Sequence record: NC_073087.1
Reading direction: 5' to 3' (one strand)
DNA length: 44,825 nt
Source of the DNA: Escherichia phage Gluttony_ev152
Positions 1,674 to 44,602 of this stretch are shown here, in pieces; position 1 is the stretch's first letter; each line of letters starts with the position of its first letter. The translations under genes and the position numbers were made by a program. Below the pieces are notes generated by a model. The model made no database searches and had not been told where the DNA came from. It saw only the letters and a list, made by a program, of their open reading frames with translations.

Positions 1674-2139
1674 GGAGTTCTCCTTCGCTCATTATTTCAA
1701 TTTGTGCGCTGCCGATGGGCGGCGCTTCGTCAAATATTATCAATTGCTGGCATTTGTTATTGCTCGGCCCGACTTCACCGGTGACGGCGTGAATGAATCT
1801 AATCCGCCAGTCCAGAAGAATTATCAGGTTTGCAGTCTTCCGGGCCAGCCTCGCCCACTTCGTCGACGTGTCCTGATTCAGCAGCATGACAGTCCGGCGT
1901 CCGTGCGCTGCGCACTCTACCCACGGCAGCGGATCGGAATACGGCGGATTGCACCACTTCCACCCTTTCAACTCGGACCAGTCCACATCAAGCGCGCTGT
2001 GTTCCGCCGTGAAGTAACGCGGTAGCAGGTGGTTTGCATCGCTTGCCGCCATATCGTAACGGAATCGGTACTTCCGACGAAGCGGTTTAAATAAAGCTGG
2101 CGGCGTGCGCCAGCTATCTTTTTGCTCACTCTTCTGCAT
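1654..2139 (-). CDS. DNA N6-adenine methyltransferase (phage Dam family)
   Basis: DSWRTP near N-terminus and NPPYS catalytic motif, hallmark of phage Dam-type MTases; 161 aa. Confidence 0.8.
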   Translation of the reverse strand: MQKSEQKDSWRTPPALFKPLRRKYRFRYDMAASDANHLLPRYFTAEHSALDVDWSELKGWKWCNPPYSDPLPWVECAAHGRRTVMLLNQDTSTKWARLARKTANLIILLDWRIRFIHAVTGEVGPSNNKCQQLIIFDEAPPIGSAQIEIMSEGELLEYLNR

Positions 2140-5582: not shown

Positions 5583-5625
5583 CGTCATGTCTCCCAAAAA
5601 TGGCGGGACAAGCCCGCCGTATTAA

Positions 5626-11625: not shown

Positions 11626-11654
11626 TAAAAAGAGGCCCGCTAATCTGCGGGCCG
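11626..11654 (-). terminator. intrinsic terminator (minus strand)
   Basis: Forward AAAAAGAGGCCCGCTAATCTGCGGGCC; hairpin plus T-run on minus strand after gene ending 11662. Confidence 0.55.
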
Positions 11655-11661
11655 GAATATA

Positions 11662-12180
11662 TTAATCTTCCAGTTCGAAATAGGTTTCGACGATTTCTTT
11701 TAGCTCTTTGTGGAAGTCTTCGACGTCGTCATCTTCCAGCTTGGCGATTGATTTGATCTCGAACGATTCCAGCAGGTCGTCGAATTCGTCGTTCGCATCG
11801 TCGTCGTCACCACCGGCGATAATCGCGGCATACTGTTTGATCTCGTCGCGCATCTCTGCCAGCGGATCGGCATCTTTCTTACCTTTGCCTTTCGCCGGTG
11901 CTTTTTTAGACTTAGCCGGTTTTTCGTCTTCGGCGTCTTCGTCGTCGTCATCTTCTACGACTTCTTTTTTGGCCTTACCCTTCGCCGGTGCTTTTTTAGC
12001 TTTAGCCGGTTTTTCGTCTTCGGCGTCATCGTCGTCATCTTCGACAACTTCTTTTTTGGCCTTAGACGGCTTCTTGTCTTCCTGTTTACCAACGGCAGCG
12101 CCAACGGTTTCATAATGTTTAGCGATGGTTTCCAGTGCTACTACGCCGCGAGTGATCAGGTTTACGATTTGCTCAAACAT
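11662..12180 (-). CDS. acidic/basic charge-block repeat protein
   Basis: ATG at 12180 with GGAGATATACC upstream; two tandem 31-aa repeats KKEVVEDDDDDAEDEKPAKAKKAPAKGKAKK; first gene after the leftward promoter. Confidence 0.6.
   Translation of the reverse strand: MFEQIVNLITRGVVALETIAKHYETVGAAVGKQEDKKPSKAKKEVVEDDDDDAEDEKPAKAKKAPAKGKAKKEVVEDDDDEDAEDEKPAKSKKAPAKGKGKKDADPLAEMRDEIKQYAAIIAGGDDDDANDEFDDLLESFEIKSIAKLEDDDVEDFHKELKEIVETYFELED
11880..12070 (-). repeat. tandem repeat of about 93 nt in charge-block protein gene
   Basis: Two near-identical units (CCTTCGCCGGTGCTTTTTTAG...TTCTTTTTTGGCC), each encoding one 31-aa repeat. Confidence 0.6.
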
Positions 12181-12376
12181 GGTATATCTCCGATTGGTTA
12201 AGTTTAGGTGTCGGCAGTTAACTTCGTCGGTGGCCTTAACATATTGCCAGGTTACGCGTTCTCCCGTTCGGGTAGTGGACCTGGTTATATAATCACGGTT
12301 GGGAATCCTGACACTTCGATCCGGCCCCTGCGTTGCCCCTCTCCAGTTTGCGTCCTGCATCCTGTCGACGGAGTGA

Positions 12377-12406
12377 ATGATAGATTGGTTGCAGGATGGG
12401 TGTCAA
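12377..12406 (-). promoter_or_regulatory. leftward promoter candidate, TTGACA-N18-TATCAT
   Basis: Consensus -35 and near-consensus -10 on minus strand, TGCAACCAAT in spacer; about 200 nt upstream of first leftward gene. Confidence 0.55.
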
Positions 12407-12416
12407 CAACTAATTT

Positions 12417-12454
12417 CAAAAAAAAAAGCGCCGAGGCAAAATGCGACGGCGCTA
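12417..12454 (-). terminator. intrinsic terminator (minus strand) upstream of leftward promoter
   Basis: Forward A10-AGCGCCG...CGGCGCT; on minus strand hairpin followed by T10. Confidence 0.5.
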
Positions 12455-12523
12455 ACCAATAAGAGACAATGAGACGAGAATTATTATTACACGCGTGCGC
12501 GCCCGTTTCAATATCCAAAGGAT

Positions 12524-12552
12524 TTGACACCGTGCAGTTTTGGGTGTAGTTT
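12524..12552 (+). promoter_or_regulatory. rightward promoter candidate, TTGACA-N17-TAGTTT
   Basis: Consensus -35 with weaker -10; followed by inverted repeat TTGGTcattAACCAA and GAGGG RBS of HTH gene. Confidence 0.45.
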
Positions 12553-12583
12553 CGTTGGTCATTAACCAACTGAGGGCAGAGCA

Positions 12584-12913
12584 ATGAATGTAAACGACGC
12601 AATCGAAATGTTAACGAAGACTGTTTGCAGTGAGACAAGCCGGTCATGGGCATACACCGATGCCGTGGGGGCTGTGTTATTTGAAATCGAACGACTGCGG
12701 CTTACCGAAAAAGAATTGCGCGCCAGGCTGGAACTACTCAACGGTACAGCAGCAAGCAAGCTGCAAAAACACAATGAAGAAATGGAAGAATACAAAAAGC
12801 AGGTTATCCGTTTGCGCGCCGAGGGCAAATCTTGGGCGATGATTGCCGAGTTGACCGGAATTAATCAGAGCACAGTGCGCTCCTGGGTACGCAATAATAA
12901 AACTTCTAAGTAA
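12584..12913 (+). CDS. helix-turn-helix DNA-binding protein (putative regulator)
   Basis: C-terminal GKSWAMIAELTGINQSTVRSWV resembles resolvase/sigma-region-4-type HTH; first rightward gene after divergent promoter. Confidence 0.65.
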   Translation: MNVNDAIEMLTKTVCSETSRSWAYTDAVGAVLFEIERLRLTEKELRARLELLNGTAASKLQKHNEEMEEYKKQVIRLRAEGKSWAMIAELTGINQSTVRSWVRNNKTSK

Positions 12914-15188: not shown

Positions 15189-15265
15189 ATCCTGCGCGCA
15201 TTGGTTGCCGATATGGGAATTCCCATATCGCTAAAAGGTTAAATTTTGCGCGCATTGGTTGCCAT
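15189..15265. promoter_or_regulatory. direct repeat - 20-bp perfect palindrome - direct repeat, candidate protein-binding or origin element
   Basis: TGCGCGCATTGGTTGCC twice flanking GATATGGGAATTCCCATATC, immediately after primase/helicase stop. Confidence 0.4.
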
Positions 15266-15348
15266 TTTGAGTGTTTTTATCAGGTCGTATTGGTTGCCGT
15301 GTAGTGTGAATATAGTGAATAGTTATGCAGTTTTGTTGCATAAAGTAA

Positions 15349-15510
15349 GCGGGACAAAAAGCGGGACAAACAAGGGGCGGGACAAAGCGGGACAGCACCC
15401 CCGTCCCGCCCCTGATGGCGCGGCCTGGAGAGGAGCGGGACAGGCGGGACAACCCCCAGTCTTTCAGACTAGACGGGGGTCAATGGCCCCCCTCGTCTGA
15501 GACTGAATAA
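15349..15510 (+). repeat. noncoding cassette A: GCGGGACA direct-repeat array plus conserved 53-nt element
   Basis: Six direct and one inverted copy of GCGGGACA(A/G) within about 100 bp, followed by AGTCTTTCAGACTAGACGGGGGTCAATGGCCCCCCTCGTCTGAGACTGAATAA (15458-15510). Confidence 0.7.
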
Positions 15511-15665
15511 AATCCGGGGATTGCAAAATACACGGCAGCATGATGCGAATTGCGGTCGACGATGAACTAGGCAACCAATGCGAGTTGCATTATGCTGAGT
15601 GAAAAATGCGGTTTGCAGTCGCAGCAGATAGCGATCAACTTTTTCATGCGCGTGATTAATATTGG

Positions 15666-15694
15666 TTGCGCCCAGCCTGGCACCTTGCTATATT
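15666..15694 (+). promoter_or_regulatory. promoter candidate, TTGCGC-N17-TATATT
   Basis: Hexamers with 17-nt spacer; ATTGGTTGC motif overlapping -35 and again immediately after -10; leader TATATTGGTTGCACACCAACATGAGGAC nearly identical to the leader at 26033-26061 on the minus strand. Confidence 0.55.
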
Positions 15695-15722
15695 GGTTGC
15701 ACACCAACATGAGGACTGAACA

Positions 15723-42111: not shown

Positions 42112-42190
42112 GGTATCATCCCCTATATTTGGTTGAGTTTTAGTATTACACCGCTCAACCAGGATTGCAACCAATTACGAGGATTTAGCT

Positions 42191-44602
42191 ATGGCAGCGG
42201 GTACGCTATCCGTAACGAACAATAGCAAGGCGGTAGTAGGGGTCGGCACCACGTTTACCGCGTTTAAAGCTGGCGACTTCTTAACGTTGGTGGTAGGACA
42301 AGTCCCATACACCGTGGCAATCGCGTCCATTGAAAGCGCAACCGCGCTTACGCTGGTGCTGCCGTTCGACGGCCCAACGGCAACCGGCCTTGCGTGGGAC
42401 GGCGTTAAGCGCGATACCATGTCACTGGCAACGATGGGCGTTACCGTACAGGCACAGAAAGCGTTGCGATTGATGATCGCAGATGAAAACAACTGGCGCG
42501 CTATCTTCGGCGAAGAAGAAGAAATCTCGGTCACGCTACCGAACGGTCAAGTGGTGCAGGGTATGTCGTGGGGCTACCTGTCAAAACTGCTTAAAGACGT
42601 AGATCCTGTTGAATTGCAGGCTATCGCGGACCAGACCATCACGGCTAAAAACCAGGCGCAAGGATTCCGTAACGAGGCGGAAGGCTTCAAGAACACCGCG
42701 AATACCGCGAAAGATGCCGCAGTAGCTGCGAAGACAGCGGCGGAGACAGCTAAGTCGCAGGCCGTAACCGCTAAAGCGAAGACAGCGGCGGAGACAGCTA
42801 AGTCGCAGGCCGTAACCGCTAAAGACCAGGCCAAAGGATTTCGCGACGAGGCTGAAGGCTTCGCCAACAGCGCGGACGCGTCAAAGAAAGTGCCGTATGC
42901 TGGCGTAACATTACCGGCACCGACTGGAGTAAGGGATATGCTCAAGCGGTTGCGCGATTCGGTTAAGGGCGGCTTCTGGCGCGTCGATGATATTGCGCAG
43001 TTTCCATCTGGCGAGATGACCCCTTTCAGATACGGACCTGGCGTATGTGGCGGCGCGGGGGATACATTCTTTGCAATCAACGTTGACTGGCAAACCTCGC
43101 GCGTTAAAGTTTTCTCGGGAAACAACAACGCGATCAACGGTGCGTCGGGAAGTGTTAGCGCTATCGAACTGGCTAAGCTGGGGGCTAACGGGGACGTGGC
43201 GATCGGGGACGGCGGGACCGGTGCATCGAACGACCAGGGCGCGAGAAAAAACCTTCAGGCAATGCACGAGCGACAGGCATCGTTGGATACTGAAGATCTT
43301 AACGTCCTTCAGGGTGATAAGGCTGGGTTTTATTATCAGTCCCTGTCGGCTAACGCCACCCCCGAACGTAACTATCCTATTAACCAGGCGGGTTGTTTAC
43401 TGGTGCAAAGATCCGGTGCTAACGATCCGAAAAGCTGCATACAAACGTACACCTCATACCTTAACGGTCGGCGCTGGATTCGATGGCTGAGCAACGCGAC
43501 TACTGGCACTTGGTCCCAATGGTACGAATTATATAACGCAGGGTCGTCGCCGACTTTTTCTGGAGTAATTACTGGATCTGCGGTGCGCGCTTCCGTTGAC
43601 GGAAAGATCATAACTATTAAACCTGGCGTCAATGATGTAGTTATTCACAACTCGGCATCTAATAAATTTTTGCAATTAAAGGACGATGGCGGTCTTTCGT
43701 ATGACAACAAGCTGATCGCGTATAACGGCCTTGCCGCCAGTGGCACATTTGCTATGACCGTCCCTAGCATTAAAGTTACAACAGCCAATGGCGGATTTCG
43801 TATCGACGGAACAACGTCGACAAACAACCAGCCACTTCACGTAACAGGCTACAACTCCGCAGGCACGCGTCTTTGGTTTTTAGGGAAGGACACCGGGACG
43901 AACGCGCTATTCCTGAACGATGTTACATCGTCTAAGGTTGAGCTGATCACAGACGGCGTTGTGCTTGGTACAAAGAATTTTGCGGGCAAGGCATACGTCC
44001 AGGCCGCAAGTTTAGAGATCGACCGACCGAGCGGCAAGTATTTCAAAATGCAGAACGACGGCACCTCGTCGCACCCTGCAACCTTCAAATTATGGGGTAA
44101 CGGGTCTGAGAGGGCGTCGGTTATTGAGTGTGGTTTTGATAACGGCCCTGGGTGGGTGTTTTACGCGCAATATAACAGCAACGGCACGCGCCAGATGAAC
44201 GTTAACGGTACGGTAAACTGCACGACGGTAAACCAGTCGTCTGACCGCGAGTTGAAGGATAACATCAAGCCGATCGAGAACGCTCGCGCGGGCCTTGCTA
44301 AGATGGGCGGTTATACCTACACCCTGAAAAAAGACGGTATGCCGTACGCCGGGGTGATTGCACAGGAAGTAATGGACGTTGTGCCGGAAGCGGTGAGCAC
44401 GTTCGAAGACTACGAACACCTTGCGGGGCCAACGCAAGACGGCGAGGAACTGGTAGGGCGTCAGCGCTTCTTCCAGGTGGACTACGGCGCTATTGCGGCG
44501 TACGCGGTGCAAGTGTGTAAAGAACAGGAAGAGGAACTGGTGTCATTACGCAGCGAACTGGAGGAATTAAAAGCTGCCGTAGCGGCACTGACTAAAGCAT
44601 AA
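42191..44602 (+). CDS. tail fiber protein with C-terminal intramolecular chaperone (peptidase S74-like) domain
   Basis: 803 aa; C-terminus SDRELKDNIKPIENA ... GGYTYTLKKDG ... GVIAQEV ... QVDYGAIAAY ... coiled-coil matches the autoproteolytic chaperone domain of endosialidase and T5 L-shaped fiber type; internal 48-nt tandem duplication. Confidence 0.8.
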   Translation: MAAGTLSVTNNSKAVVGVGTTFTAFKAGDFLTLVVGQVPYTVAIASIESATALTLVLPFDGPTATGLAWDGVKRDTMSLATMGVTVQAQKALRLMIADENNWRAIFGEEEEISVTLPNGQVVQGMSWGYLSKLLKDVDPVELQAIADQTITAKNQAQGFRNEAEGFKNTANTAKDAAVAAKTAAETAKSQAVTAKAKTAAETAKSQAVTAKDQAKGFRDEAEGFANSADASKKVPYAGVTLPAPTGVRDMLKRLRDSVKGGFWRVDDIAQFPSGEMTPFRYGPGVCGGAGDTFFAINVDWQTSRVKVFSGNNNAINGASGSVSAIELAKLGANGDVAIGDGGTGASNDQGARKNLQAMHERQASLDTEDLNVLQGDKAGFYYQSLSANATPERNYPINQAGCLLVQRSGANDPKSCIQTYTSYLNGRRWIRWLSNATTGTWSQWYELYNAGSSPTFSGVITGSAVRASVDGKIITIKPGVNDVVIHNSASNKFLQLKDDGGLSYDNKLIAYNGLAASGTFAMTVPSIKVTTANGGFRIDGTTSTNNQPLHVTGYNSAGTRLWFLGKDTGTNALFLNDVTSSKVELITDGVVLGTKNFAGKAYVQAASLEIDRPSGKYFKMQNDGTSSHPATFKLWGNGSERASVIECGFDNGPGWVFYAQYNSNGTRQMNVNGTVNCTTVNQSSDRELKDNIKPIENARAGLAKMGGYTYTLKKDGMPYAGVIAQEVMDVVPEAVSTFEDYEHLAGPTQDGEELVGRQRFFQVDYGAIAAYAVQVCKEQEEELVSLRSELEELKAAVAALTKA
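42730..42825 (+). repeat. 48-nt tandem duplication inside tail fiber gene
   Basis: GAAGACAGCGGCGGAGACAGCTAAGTCGCAGGCCGTAACCGCTAAAG occurs twice back to back, encoding KTAAETAKSQAVTAK twice. Confidence 0.7.

Follow-up and report, generated by a model that had tools for sequence, protein, structure and literature searches.

Among described phage elements, one close in kind to the RNA considered here is put of phage HK022, an RNA-only antiterminator that is present twice in that genome (putL and putR). In this study, we have analyzed the gap between positions 12181 and 12583 of the genome of Escherichia phage Gluttony_ev152 (NC_073087.1; 44,825 nt, the whole of which we call the window), a virulent siphophage of the Dhillonvirus (HK578-like) group. 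We report that this gap encodes a structured RNA domain, the leader, which is shared with phages of other families and lies at the predicted 5' end of an early transcript. As with putL and putR, the RNA is encoded in cis directly behind an early promoter, folds from the first few nucleotides of the transcript, stands at the head of a long, terminator-containing operon and has no apparent dedicated phage protein. It differs from put in several respects: a search of the whole HK022 genome with a covariance model of the leader (R1, described below) revealed no homology of sequence or structure; the leader has about 160 nt and folds into helices P0 to P6 around a three-way junction, whereas put has about 70 nt and two stem-loops; and the leader is found once per genome, put twice. 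The leader is also dispensable in natural relatives, and a role in antitermination would be argued by analogy.

Three other groups of known systems invite comparison. The c4 RNA of P1 and P7, the sar RNA of P22 and the OOP RNA of lambda are short control-region RNAs with a constitutive-looking promoter and an intrinsic terminator. A second, candidate small RNA of the gap resembles them in having its own promoter and terminator and in being complementary to the ribosome-binding region of early genes; unlike them, it would be encoded in trans to both of its putative targets, though within 300 bp of them, and would act on two diverging operons, and it has no sequence relation to them. The layout of the gap recalls the PL/PR/PRM region of lambdoid phages, with back-to-back early promoters between a leftward recombination and replication arm and a rightward arm whose first gene encodes a small helix-turn-helix (HTH) protein, a palindromic site that overlaps a promoter, and a terminator after the first leftward gene. 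In contrast to the lambdoid phages, the phage of the window is virulent, and no repressor/Cro pair, integrase, or N or Q homologue was detected here; furthermore, a motif of the gap, GCAACCAAT, is scattered genome-wide and forms a cluster at an origin-like region, more in the manner of iteron-type autoregulation. Finally, 5'-terminal leaders that stabilize a message or are bound by CsrA are exemplified by the ompA 5' stem-loop and the flhDC leader. As in these, the 5' end of the leader RNA is held in a helix and GGA motifs lie near the 5' end of the mRNA; the leader is, however, much larger than a simple protective hairpin and much better conserved. In Dhillonviruses without the leader, the same position has a different sequence, which in phage Envy could, judged by eye, form a simple 5' hairpin. 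Such a hairpin at the same place would suggest that the complex fold adds a further function.

Taken alone, the region is an ordinary divergent promoter region that was already annotated in part in HK578. What this study adds is a structured RNA family that had not been described and is unusually distributed, together with a plausible small regulatory RNA. Neither RNA was described in the literature that we searched, by topic and by sequence string, and on transcription control in these phages that literature held nothing beyond consensus-predicted, host-type promoters. Few coliphages are isolated as often as the Dhillonvirus and T1-like (Drexlerviridae) phages, which are used in therapy cocktails and in studies of bacterial defense systems. 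An exchangeable RNA domain at the 5' end of an early transcript is a concrete, easily tested handle on their early-gene control, and natural "deletion" relatives (Envy and WF5505) exist for comparison. A leader that acts on RNA polymerase would be, with put, only the second known kind of antiterminator made of RNA alone; a leader that is a decoy would join the few RNA countermeasures known from phages. The small RNA, if true, would show in compact form how one antisense RNA can tune two operons that diverge. Should both RNAs lack a measurable effect, the gap is a divergent promoter region of the usual kind.

Fold and distribution of the leader RNA

The leader spans positions ~12370 to 12210 on the minus strand and takes up most of the 196-nt interval between the leftward early promoter, P_L, and the first leftward gene. 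Its fold is a three-way junction carrying two arms, P3 and P4-P6, with two branch points in all. The domain is closed by helix P0 (12369..12362 with 12217..12210) and contains the hairpin P1 with a GGA loop (12359..12349), the long-range helix P2 (12339..12335 with 12234..12229), the P3 arm (12333..12295, including the hairpin GAU-CGAAGU-GUC at 12321..12310), and helices P4 (12291..12287 with 12244..12240), P5 (12284..12279 with 12252..12247) and P6 (12272..12270 with 12265..12263), all on the minus strand. The region after P0 is an unstructured, C/A-rich linker.

Alignment of 32 distinct copies showed a near-invariant core of about 50 nt, GGAGAGGRGCAACGCAGGGGC..GAUCGWAGUGUCAGGAUUCCCAACCGUGA, between variable arms that covary. 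On a MAFFT alignment, RNAalifold returned 29 pairs, 12 of them with compensatory changes. The covariance model R1, which was built after two helices had been corrected by eye, scores all copies at 147 to 181 bits, and nothing else scores. In the R1 alignment, 87.9% of the cells are paired, compared with 24 to 48% when the partners are slid; 15 pairs show double changes (2 to 5 when slid), and the covariation score is 0.296 (at most 0.081 when slid). Because the R1 alignment was fitted to the model, these pairing figures lean towards structure; the MAFFT-based result agrees with them in direction. The many G-U pairs identify the minus strand of the window as the RNA sense.

P0 is present in 32 of 32 copies, pairing the very start of the transcript with a segment 2 to 11 nt after the conserved GACGAAG, and it covaries between groups of phages (GUCGAC/GUCGAC, GGGCG/CGCCC, GACGGGC/GCCCGUC and AGACGG/CCGUCU). 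A -10-like hexamer ends 7 to 12 nt before P0 in all 32 variants, and P0 lies within about 5 nt of the predicted start site. The invariant GGA motifs include the one in the loop of P1, which sits on a covarying stem, and others in GGAGAGG and AGGAUU. In sortkaff, Lumpael, IME279 and PT1, the 5' strand of P0 can be extended to 8 bp (GGGCGGCG/CGCCGCCC, about -20 kcal/mol), overlapping the lower half of P1; the extended helix could be an alternative pairing, or a switch, with P1.

Other pairings and a coding function were considered and rejected. A pseudoknot between AGUGU in the P3 loop and ACACU was invariant in the first 18 sequences and is broken by changes in KA2-1, MQ-4 and IME279; it was discarded because those changes compensate in the local hairpin GAU-CGWAGU-GUC, which also replaced a GAUC/GAUU helix proposed by RNAalifold. 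As for coding, the reading frames differ among phages, no start codon is shared by them, and variation of the synonymous type is lacking in the core. An in-frame extension of the leftward open reading frame (ORF) to an ATG at 12360 and the short ORFs of Motto and slyngel use different frames and have no common start, and the AUG of P1, missing from the Drexlerviridae, heads a 10-codon frame in some phages.

When the gap was compared by blastn with 50,697 phage records, positions ~12222 to 12358 gave matches outside Dhillonvirus, and the leader is the only part of the gap found there. It is present in 170 records, about 40 of them outside Dhillonvirus, with one copy in each save for a single 88.6-kb record with three matching places. 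Carriers in the Drexlerviridae include slyngel, tunus, swan01, JK16, JLBYU07, PHB17, Motto and KMI8; others are the Sortsnevirus phages sortkaff and IME279, Murrayvirus Lumpael, Jilinvirus PT1, and the unclassified Arya, KA2-1, Serratia phage MQ-4, BUCT618, HeidiAbel and Alux-21. Within Dhillonvirus, the leader is the best-conserved part of the gap, being at least 99% identical over 161 nt in 78 records. At the annotated loci examined, it is intergenic or covered only by calls for short hypothetical proteins and has the same sense as the genes downstream, and these small early genes are unrelated between phage groups.

The leader is not universal in Dhillonvirus. In Envy, WF5505, Ioannina and LM40P1, about 160 nt are cleanly replaced by about 20 nt, and match coverage indicates that YD-2008.s, JLBYU37 and SP1 likewise have no leader; the complete Envy genome contains no copy. 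Hit counts give an estimate of about one-quarter of Dhillonvirus records without it. None of these phages has lost P_L, the small-RNA unit, P_R or the palindrome described below.

With a 431-nt query against Rfam 15, no match overlapped 12210 to 12370 at E values up to 10, and the Rfam matches over the terminator of the gap were far below gathering scores. A host origin, or mimicry of a host RNA, was rejected when blastn at E values up to 10 gave no match in 5,426 Escherichia coli genomes, and ARAGORN detected no tRNA or tmRNA genes in the window. A 16-mer scan of 185,579 genomes gave at least 120 matches, which is about chance level (some 280 estimated in 596 Gb); one was real, and it was a phage contig. 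A metagenome scan added 16 further copies, all of known subtypes. The extra copies from viral, genome and metagenome collections all belong to these subtypes and lie mostly on phage-sized contigs of 30 to 52 kb, with a few on short fragments. A leader identical to that of sortkaff was found on QFQS01000013.1, a 42.8-kb scaffold in a metagenome-assembled genome of "Cereibacter sphaeroides"; this scaffold is almost certainly a misbinned enterobacterial phage genome.

The sequences upstream of the leader also have recurring features. Promoters before the leader in Drexlerviridae carry the conserved upstream boxes AATAGCAC-N5-TTGTTAAAAC, Motto and Lumpael have the palindrome AGCACGAATTGCT, and MQ-4, KA2-1, Arya and Alux-21 have TTGATAGGTATAAACG in common. 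These upstream boxes may be regulator sites.

Promoters, putative operators and a candidate small RNA

Conservation to the right of the leader was assessed in an alignment of 22 distinct Dhillonvirus versions of 12376 to 12600, together with 6 versions of the whole gap. The earlier note on this sequence had placed two promoters here, and both of them are present and conserved in the 22 variants. The leftward one, P_L (12406..12377, minus strand), has a -35 element TTGACA (12406..12401), an 18-nt spacer and a -10 element TATCAT (12382..12377); it matches the consensus at 11 of 12 positions and is the top sigma70-like match of the promoter scan in the first 19 kb. Its -35 element is TTGACA or TTGACT and its -10 element only TATCAT, TATTAT or TAATAT. 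The rightward one, P_R (12524-12552, plus strand), reads TTGACA-17-TAGTTT, with a -35 element that fits the consensus at 6 of 6 positions and a -10 element that fits it at 3 of 6; the poor -10 element explains why P_R was not called by the consensus scan. TTGACAC is invariant, and the -10 element is TAGTTT in all variants except HK578 (TAGTAT). Transcription is predicted to start at about 12369 to 12371 from P_L and at about 12558 to 12560 from P_R.

A third promoter, P_s (12511..12483, minus strand), had been overlooked. It consists of TTGAAA (12511..12506), a 17-nt spacer and an extended -10 element TGt-AATAAT (12488..12483), with 10 of 12 consensus matches plus the TG, and both hexamers are invariant or nearly so in the 22 variants. 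P_s stands back to back with P_R, their -35 elements 12 bp apart, and is directed at a terminator. All three promoters have the features of the sigma70 type: near-consensus hexamers, a spacer of 16 to 18 nt, and hexamers that are kept while their flanks vary. The GenBank record of HK578 has three consensus-predicted promoters annotated at the positions of P_L, P_s and P_R. Promoter-like sites were no more frequent than in shuffled sequences (3 found, 3.1 expected); therefore, the case for function rests on conservation.

The terminator (12452..12418, minus strand) reads GCGCCG-UC-GCA-UUU-UGC-CU-CGGCGC followed by U10 (12427..12418). Its outer stem GCGCCG/CGGCGC pairs 12433..12428 with 12452..12447, and its inner 3-bp stem is GCA/UGC; our scan missed it because the hairpin was read as having a 13-nt loop. 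The plus strand has no T-run. The outer stem differs in two relatives: in Ioannina and LM40P1, it is UCCCCG/CGGGGA, a change of two compensatory pairs, and the U-tract is 8 to 13 nt long across all 22 variants. The structure thus has what an intrinsic terminator of the minus strand should have, a G+C-rich hairpin of 6 plus 3 bp and a U-tract, and its stem is kept by compensation. The earlier note had recognized this terminator at 12417 to 12454, upstream of P_L, where it is indeed present and conserved, and had proposed that it blocks read-through into the leftward operon. It does stand between P_L and any leftward transcription arriving from the right, but it is best read as the 3' end of the P_s unit, with the insulation of P_L as a by-product.

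P_s and the terminator together bound a candidate small RNA (12476..12419, minus strand), 5'-(C)GUCUCAUUGUCUCUUAUUGGUUAG-terminator-U(n). The predicted transcript runs from about 12476 to about 12420, has 55 to 58 nt, and comprises 25 unpaired nucleotides, the terminator hairpin and a U-tail; when a 62-nt transcript was folded with RNAfold, the terminator hairpin was the sole structure (-16.7 kcal/mol). A 24-nt seed (plus strand CTAACCAATAAGAGACAATGAGAC) is invariant in 20 of the 22 variants, and the bases between the -10 element of P_s and the seed are variable and have indels of 1 to 4 nt. The combination of (near-)invariant -35 and -10 elements, seed and U-tract with variable bases at the start site and a covarying stem is the pattern of an RNA gene. 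A 26-codon ORF on the plus strand (12470-12550, with ATG 12470 behind a sequence resembling a translation initiation region) was rejected, the indels of 1 to 4 nt in relatives breaking its frame.

The seed consists of two blocks, UGUCUC and UUGGUUAG, and is complementary to the initiation regions of the first gene of each arm. That of the first leftward gene is UUAACCAAUCGGAGAUAUACCAUG (12201..12178, minus strand), with its Shine-Dalgarno (SD) sequence at 12191..12187, its ATG at 12180..12178, and the complementary stretch at 12201..12185; this stretch, UUAACCAAU-C-GGAGAUA, gives 16 bp with one mismatch, covers the SD sequence and has a duplex energy of -19.9 kcal/mol. That of the rightward HTH gene is UUAACCAACUGAGGGCAGAGCAAUG (12562..12586, plus strand), which reads UUAACCAAC and then the SD sequence (-20.0 kcal/mol). 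Duplexes of the seed with 40-nt tiles of the whole genome averaged -9.9 kcal/mol (standard deviation, 3.5), and both putative targets lie about 2.9 standard deviations lower. In WF5505, the rightward site forms 17 contiguous base pairs with the seed (-24.2 kcal/mol); in HK578, where the rightward gene has been replaced, the duplex reaches just -14.2 kcal/mol.

An inverted repeat, GTTGGT-cattA-ACCAAC, lies at 12554 to 12570. It had been noted before as following the rightward promoter; it is present, but its arms have 6 bp, 1 bp more on each side than had been given, and it overlaps the predicted start of P_R. The mRNA could therefore not contain the complete hairpin, and the repeat has the look of a DNA operator. 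It is kept in 21 of 22 variants, the exception being HK578, whose rightward gene is a different one. The AACCAA core that the repeat shares with the genome-wide motif GCAACCAAT makes it a probable operator. This motif also provides a candidate protein-binding site in the spacer of P_L, where it abuts the -10 element (12392..12384, minus strand); the spacer sequence ATTGGTTGCA is invariant in the 22 variants. AACCAAT is found 19 times in the window, compared with 5.4 times expected, and none of 100 shuffles reached 19; most copies have the long form GCAACCAAT and are mainly intergenic. A repeated motif that includes a palindrome over the promoter of a regulator or replication operon is what operator- or iteron-type sequences look like.

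Around P_L, a 7-bp inverted repeat, CATCCTG..CAGGATG (12358-12364 and 12392-12398), brackets the -10 element and the start site. It is not kept in HK578-type relatives and is therefore probably fortuitous; a weak Rfam match to DUF2693-FD (12359-12397, E = 0.056) was dismissed as a reflection of it.

Proposed functions and alternatives

Taken as a whole, the region is best explained by three promoters, a small RNA, a leader that boosts early expression in cis, and operators for a phage protein, a reading to which we assign a probability of roughly 0.55. The leader would act on the transcript that it heads: P0 would sequester the 5' triphosphate end, and the near-invariant surface would be offered to a conserved host component, for which RNA polymerase, CsrA and the ribosome are candidates, the outcome being an early mRNA that is longer-lived or more processive. 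Since about one-quarter of Dhillonvirus records do without it, the leader would be a booster and not a necessity. It is a self-contained, exchangeable module, of which several families of enterobacterial siphophages have one copy per genome, placed directly behind an early promoter and before small early genes that are unrelated. The palindrome at P_R and the GCAACCAAT site in the spacer of P_L would be operators for one phage DNA-binding protein that also has sites at 15189 to 15722, a pattern reminiscent of an origin- or iteron-binding protein that regulates its own synthesis; the 109-aa HTH protein encoded next to the gap is a candidate for the operator binder. The ~57-nt RNA is probably made, to judge from its sequence: it would have its own promoter, an intrinsic terminator that ends in a long U-tail, and a seed that is both conserved and unpaired, as trans-acting small RNAs do. 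In the first gene of each arm, its blocks UGUCUC and UUGGUUAG would pair with the SD region and with the UUAACCAA box that immediately precedes this region. In the manner of c4 of P1 and sar of P22, such trans-antisense pairing would damp translation of both genes, while the terminator would shield P_L from upstream transcription as a side effect. We consider repression of the first leftward gene and the HTH gene by this RNA somewhat less likely than not.

Several observations weigh against this overall reading. Natural phages without the leader retain the same promoter, downstream terminator and genes, and the leader is therefore dispensable. The fold of the single leader sequence is no more stable than those of shuffled sequences (z = +0.5 and +0.7); much of the core is invariant (helices 3 and 4), so that covariation cannot test it; and the diversity of the copies is low, with an effective number of sequences of 1.4. 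Strong intrinsic terminators follow the leader in Dhillonvirus only and not in slyngel, MQ-4 or sortkaff, which argues against antitermination at intrinsic terminators as its general role. With regard to the small RNA, the duplexes that the seed forms with the two initiation regions are equaled at about 10 further genomic sites, and a 32-nt seed that includes the terminator arm pairs no better than shuffled sequences, 336 of 1,000 of which were at least as good. The two targets both carry a TAACCAA box and are therefore not independent, and this shared box could be a protein site instead.

There may be no functional small RNA at all: P_s would be promoter-like and kept for another reason, such as protein binding beside P_R, the terminator would serve only to insulate P_L, in keeping with the earlier note, and the TAACCAA boxes would be protein sites like GCAACCAAT. 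In line with this, the AACCAA core belongs to a DNA motif with an excess of copies genome-wide, the duplex energies, though good, are matched elsewhere in the genome, and there is another weak, leftward promoter-like site at 12614..12587. Against it, conservation peaks in exactly the parts that an RNA gene requires and is relaxed only around the start site, and the complementarity continues past the shared box into both SD sequences, rising to 17 bp in WF5505 and falling in HK578. We regard the absence of a functional small RNA as somewhat unlikely. A more far-reaching reading, in which the leader is a new class of mobile, protein-independent RNA module that enterobacterial siphophages exchange and place exactly where early transcripts start, binds a conserved host machine through its near-invariant core (as an antiterminator or anti-Rho element unrelated to put, or as a decoy for a host factor or defense) and is accompanied by a trans-antisense small RNA that corepresses the first genes of both operons, seems to us rather doubtful.

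For the leader itself, the comparison with put raises the possibility of an RNA-only processive antiterminator that folds on leaving the polymerase and stays on it through the terminators at 11653..11634, 5618..5602 and 2115..2095 and through the Rho sites of the ~12-kb operon. The first base pair of putL involves A3 of the transcript (PMC9378689), and the leader, like putL, begins no more than a few nucleotides from the predicted start of an early transcript. Behind the first leftward gene stands a strong intrinsic terminator with no room for a promoter before the next gene, no recognizable N- or Q-like gene lies near the leader among the Pfam and PHROG matches, and a core that is nearly invariant across families would suit a conserved target, such as the zinc-binding domain of the beta' subunit. 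However, the size and architecture of the two RNAs differ as outlined above, R1 with its filters off found nothing better in HK022 than a match of 8.8 bits (E = 0.42) inside the tail genes, Dhillonviruses without the leader keep the same terminator and operon, and downstream intrinsic terminators had to be rejected as a general companion of the leader, three other phage families having none that are comparable; a put-like role seems quite unlikely. The leader might instead be cut from the 5' end of the mRNA and serve in trans as a decoy or sponge that sequesters a host factor, such as CsrA, or neutralizes a defense based on RNA sensing or nucleotide signaling. Such a role would explain both its accessory status and its travel between phage families: it is present or absent within one genus, is spread over at least 6 phage groups and sits in early regions full of small accessory genes. 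The compact, P0-closed domain followed by an unstructured linker would fit as well, as would the invariant GGA motifs, at least one of which is in a hairpin loop, that of the covarying P1, as in CsrA-type sites; binding of CsrA would be a prediction from these motifs, and we take the form CAGGAUG of the leader to resemble the CsrA consensus from systematic evolution of ligands by exponential enrichment. There is, on the other hand, neither a terminator nor a recognizable processing site between the leader and the mRNA, four GGA motifs are few compared with CsrB, and the data here implicate no defense system or partner; we consider a decoy unlikely. New classes of ribozymes and riboswitches are often associated with phages, and the size of the leader, its closing helix, its multihelix junction and its conserved unpaired junction nucleotides are typical of aptamers and ribozymes. 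Yet the search of Rfam at E values up to 10 with the 431-nt query matched no such family, and an expression platform is lacking, the stretch from P0 to the start codon containing neither a terminator/antiterminator pair nor a structure that sequesters the SD sequence. The downstream genes are unrelated between phages and therefore share no metabolic logic, and a new riboswitch or self-cleaving ribozyme is improbable.

Flanking genes and genome setting

The 1.4 kb surrounding the gap are 96 to 98% identical to many Dhillonvirus coliphage genomes of about 44 to 45 kb. The gap is flanked by the leftward ATG at 12180, with the SD sequence GGAGA at 12191..12187, and by the rightward ATG at 12584. 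That it is the junction from which two early arms diverge, as the earlier note held, is borne out by both arms starting here, and its architecture as the divergent early control region of a virulent, HK578-like siphophage is well supported. The interpretation in that note is supported in part; the gap may also be the main early switch that the note took it for. The description of the gap as gene-free holds for proteins, but about 160 of its 403 bp encode the structured RNA common to other phage families. Going down from 12180, the leftward arm encodes a 172-aa charged repeat protein, small ORFs, a PD-(D/E)XK nuclease and an SSB-like protein. The corresponding arm of Envy, a related phage, includes a DNA polymerase as well. 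The first rightward gene (12584..12913, plus strand) encodes the 109-aa protein with a C-terminal HTH, which is followed by a 754-aa primase-helicase. The assignment of this neighbor as an HTH protein, made earlier from the letters of the sequence, agrees with its matches to Pfam HTH_23, HTH_28 and Sigma70_r4_2 (E = 2e-7 to 2e-6); it belongs to PHROG 9366.

Directly after the first leftward gene and 20 nt before the next lies the terminator at 11653..11634 (minus strand), with seven G-C pairs and a U-rich tail; it is annotated at -17.2 kcal/mol in PTXU06 and WF5505. Its position implies that expression of the downstream replication and recombination genes needs read-through. The sites at 5618..5602 and 2115..2095 are further terminator candidates on the same strand.

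Directly after the primase-helicase gene, positions 15189 to 15722 form a 530-bp gene-free block that contains about 7 or 8 copies of GCGGGACA, some of them inverted, a perfect 22-bp palindrome, CGATATGGGAATTCCCATATCG, and six flanking GCAACCAAT sites; from its sequence, this block looks like a replication origin with iterons. Other copies of GCAACCAAT are found, for example, at 975/984, 2884, 2901, 5858, 16228, 18799, 26059, 26073 and 42169; at 972 to 993 the motif forms the palindrome TGCAACCAAcctaTTGGTTGCA, and the copy at 42169 precedes the SD sequence of an 803-aa ORF (42191-44602).

The first leftward gene (11662-12180, minus strand) encodes a protein of 172 aa with tandem acidic and basic repeats (KKAPAKGKxKK..EDDDDEDAEDEKPAK), which had no Pfam match and falls in PHROG 3127, a group of unknown function. 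A repeat_region is annotated within this gene in the record of phage welsh, and the repeat copy number seems to vary between phages, the matches to the gene having come as two pieces. Near-identical records of the Dhillonvirus or Drexlerviridae type are labeled Acinetobacter phage NJ01, Campylobacter phage A144, Pseudomonas phage Motto and Sodalis phage SO-1, host labels that may be artifacts of contamination or propagation.

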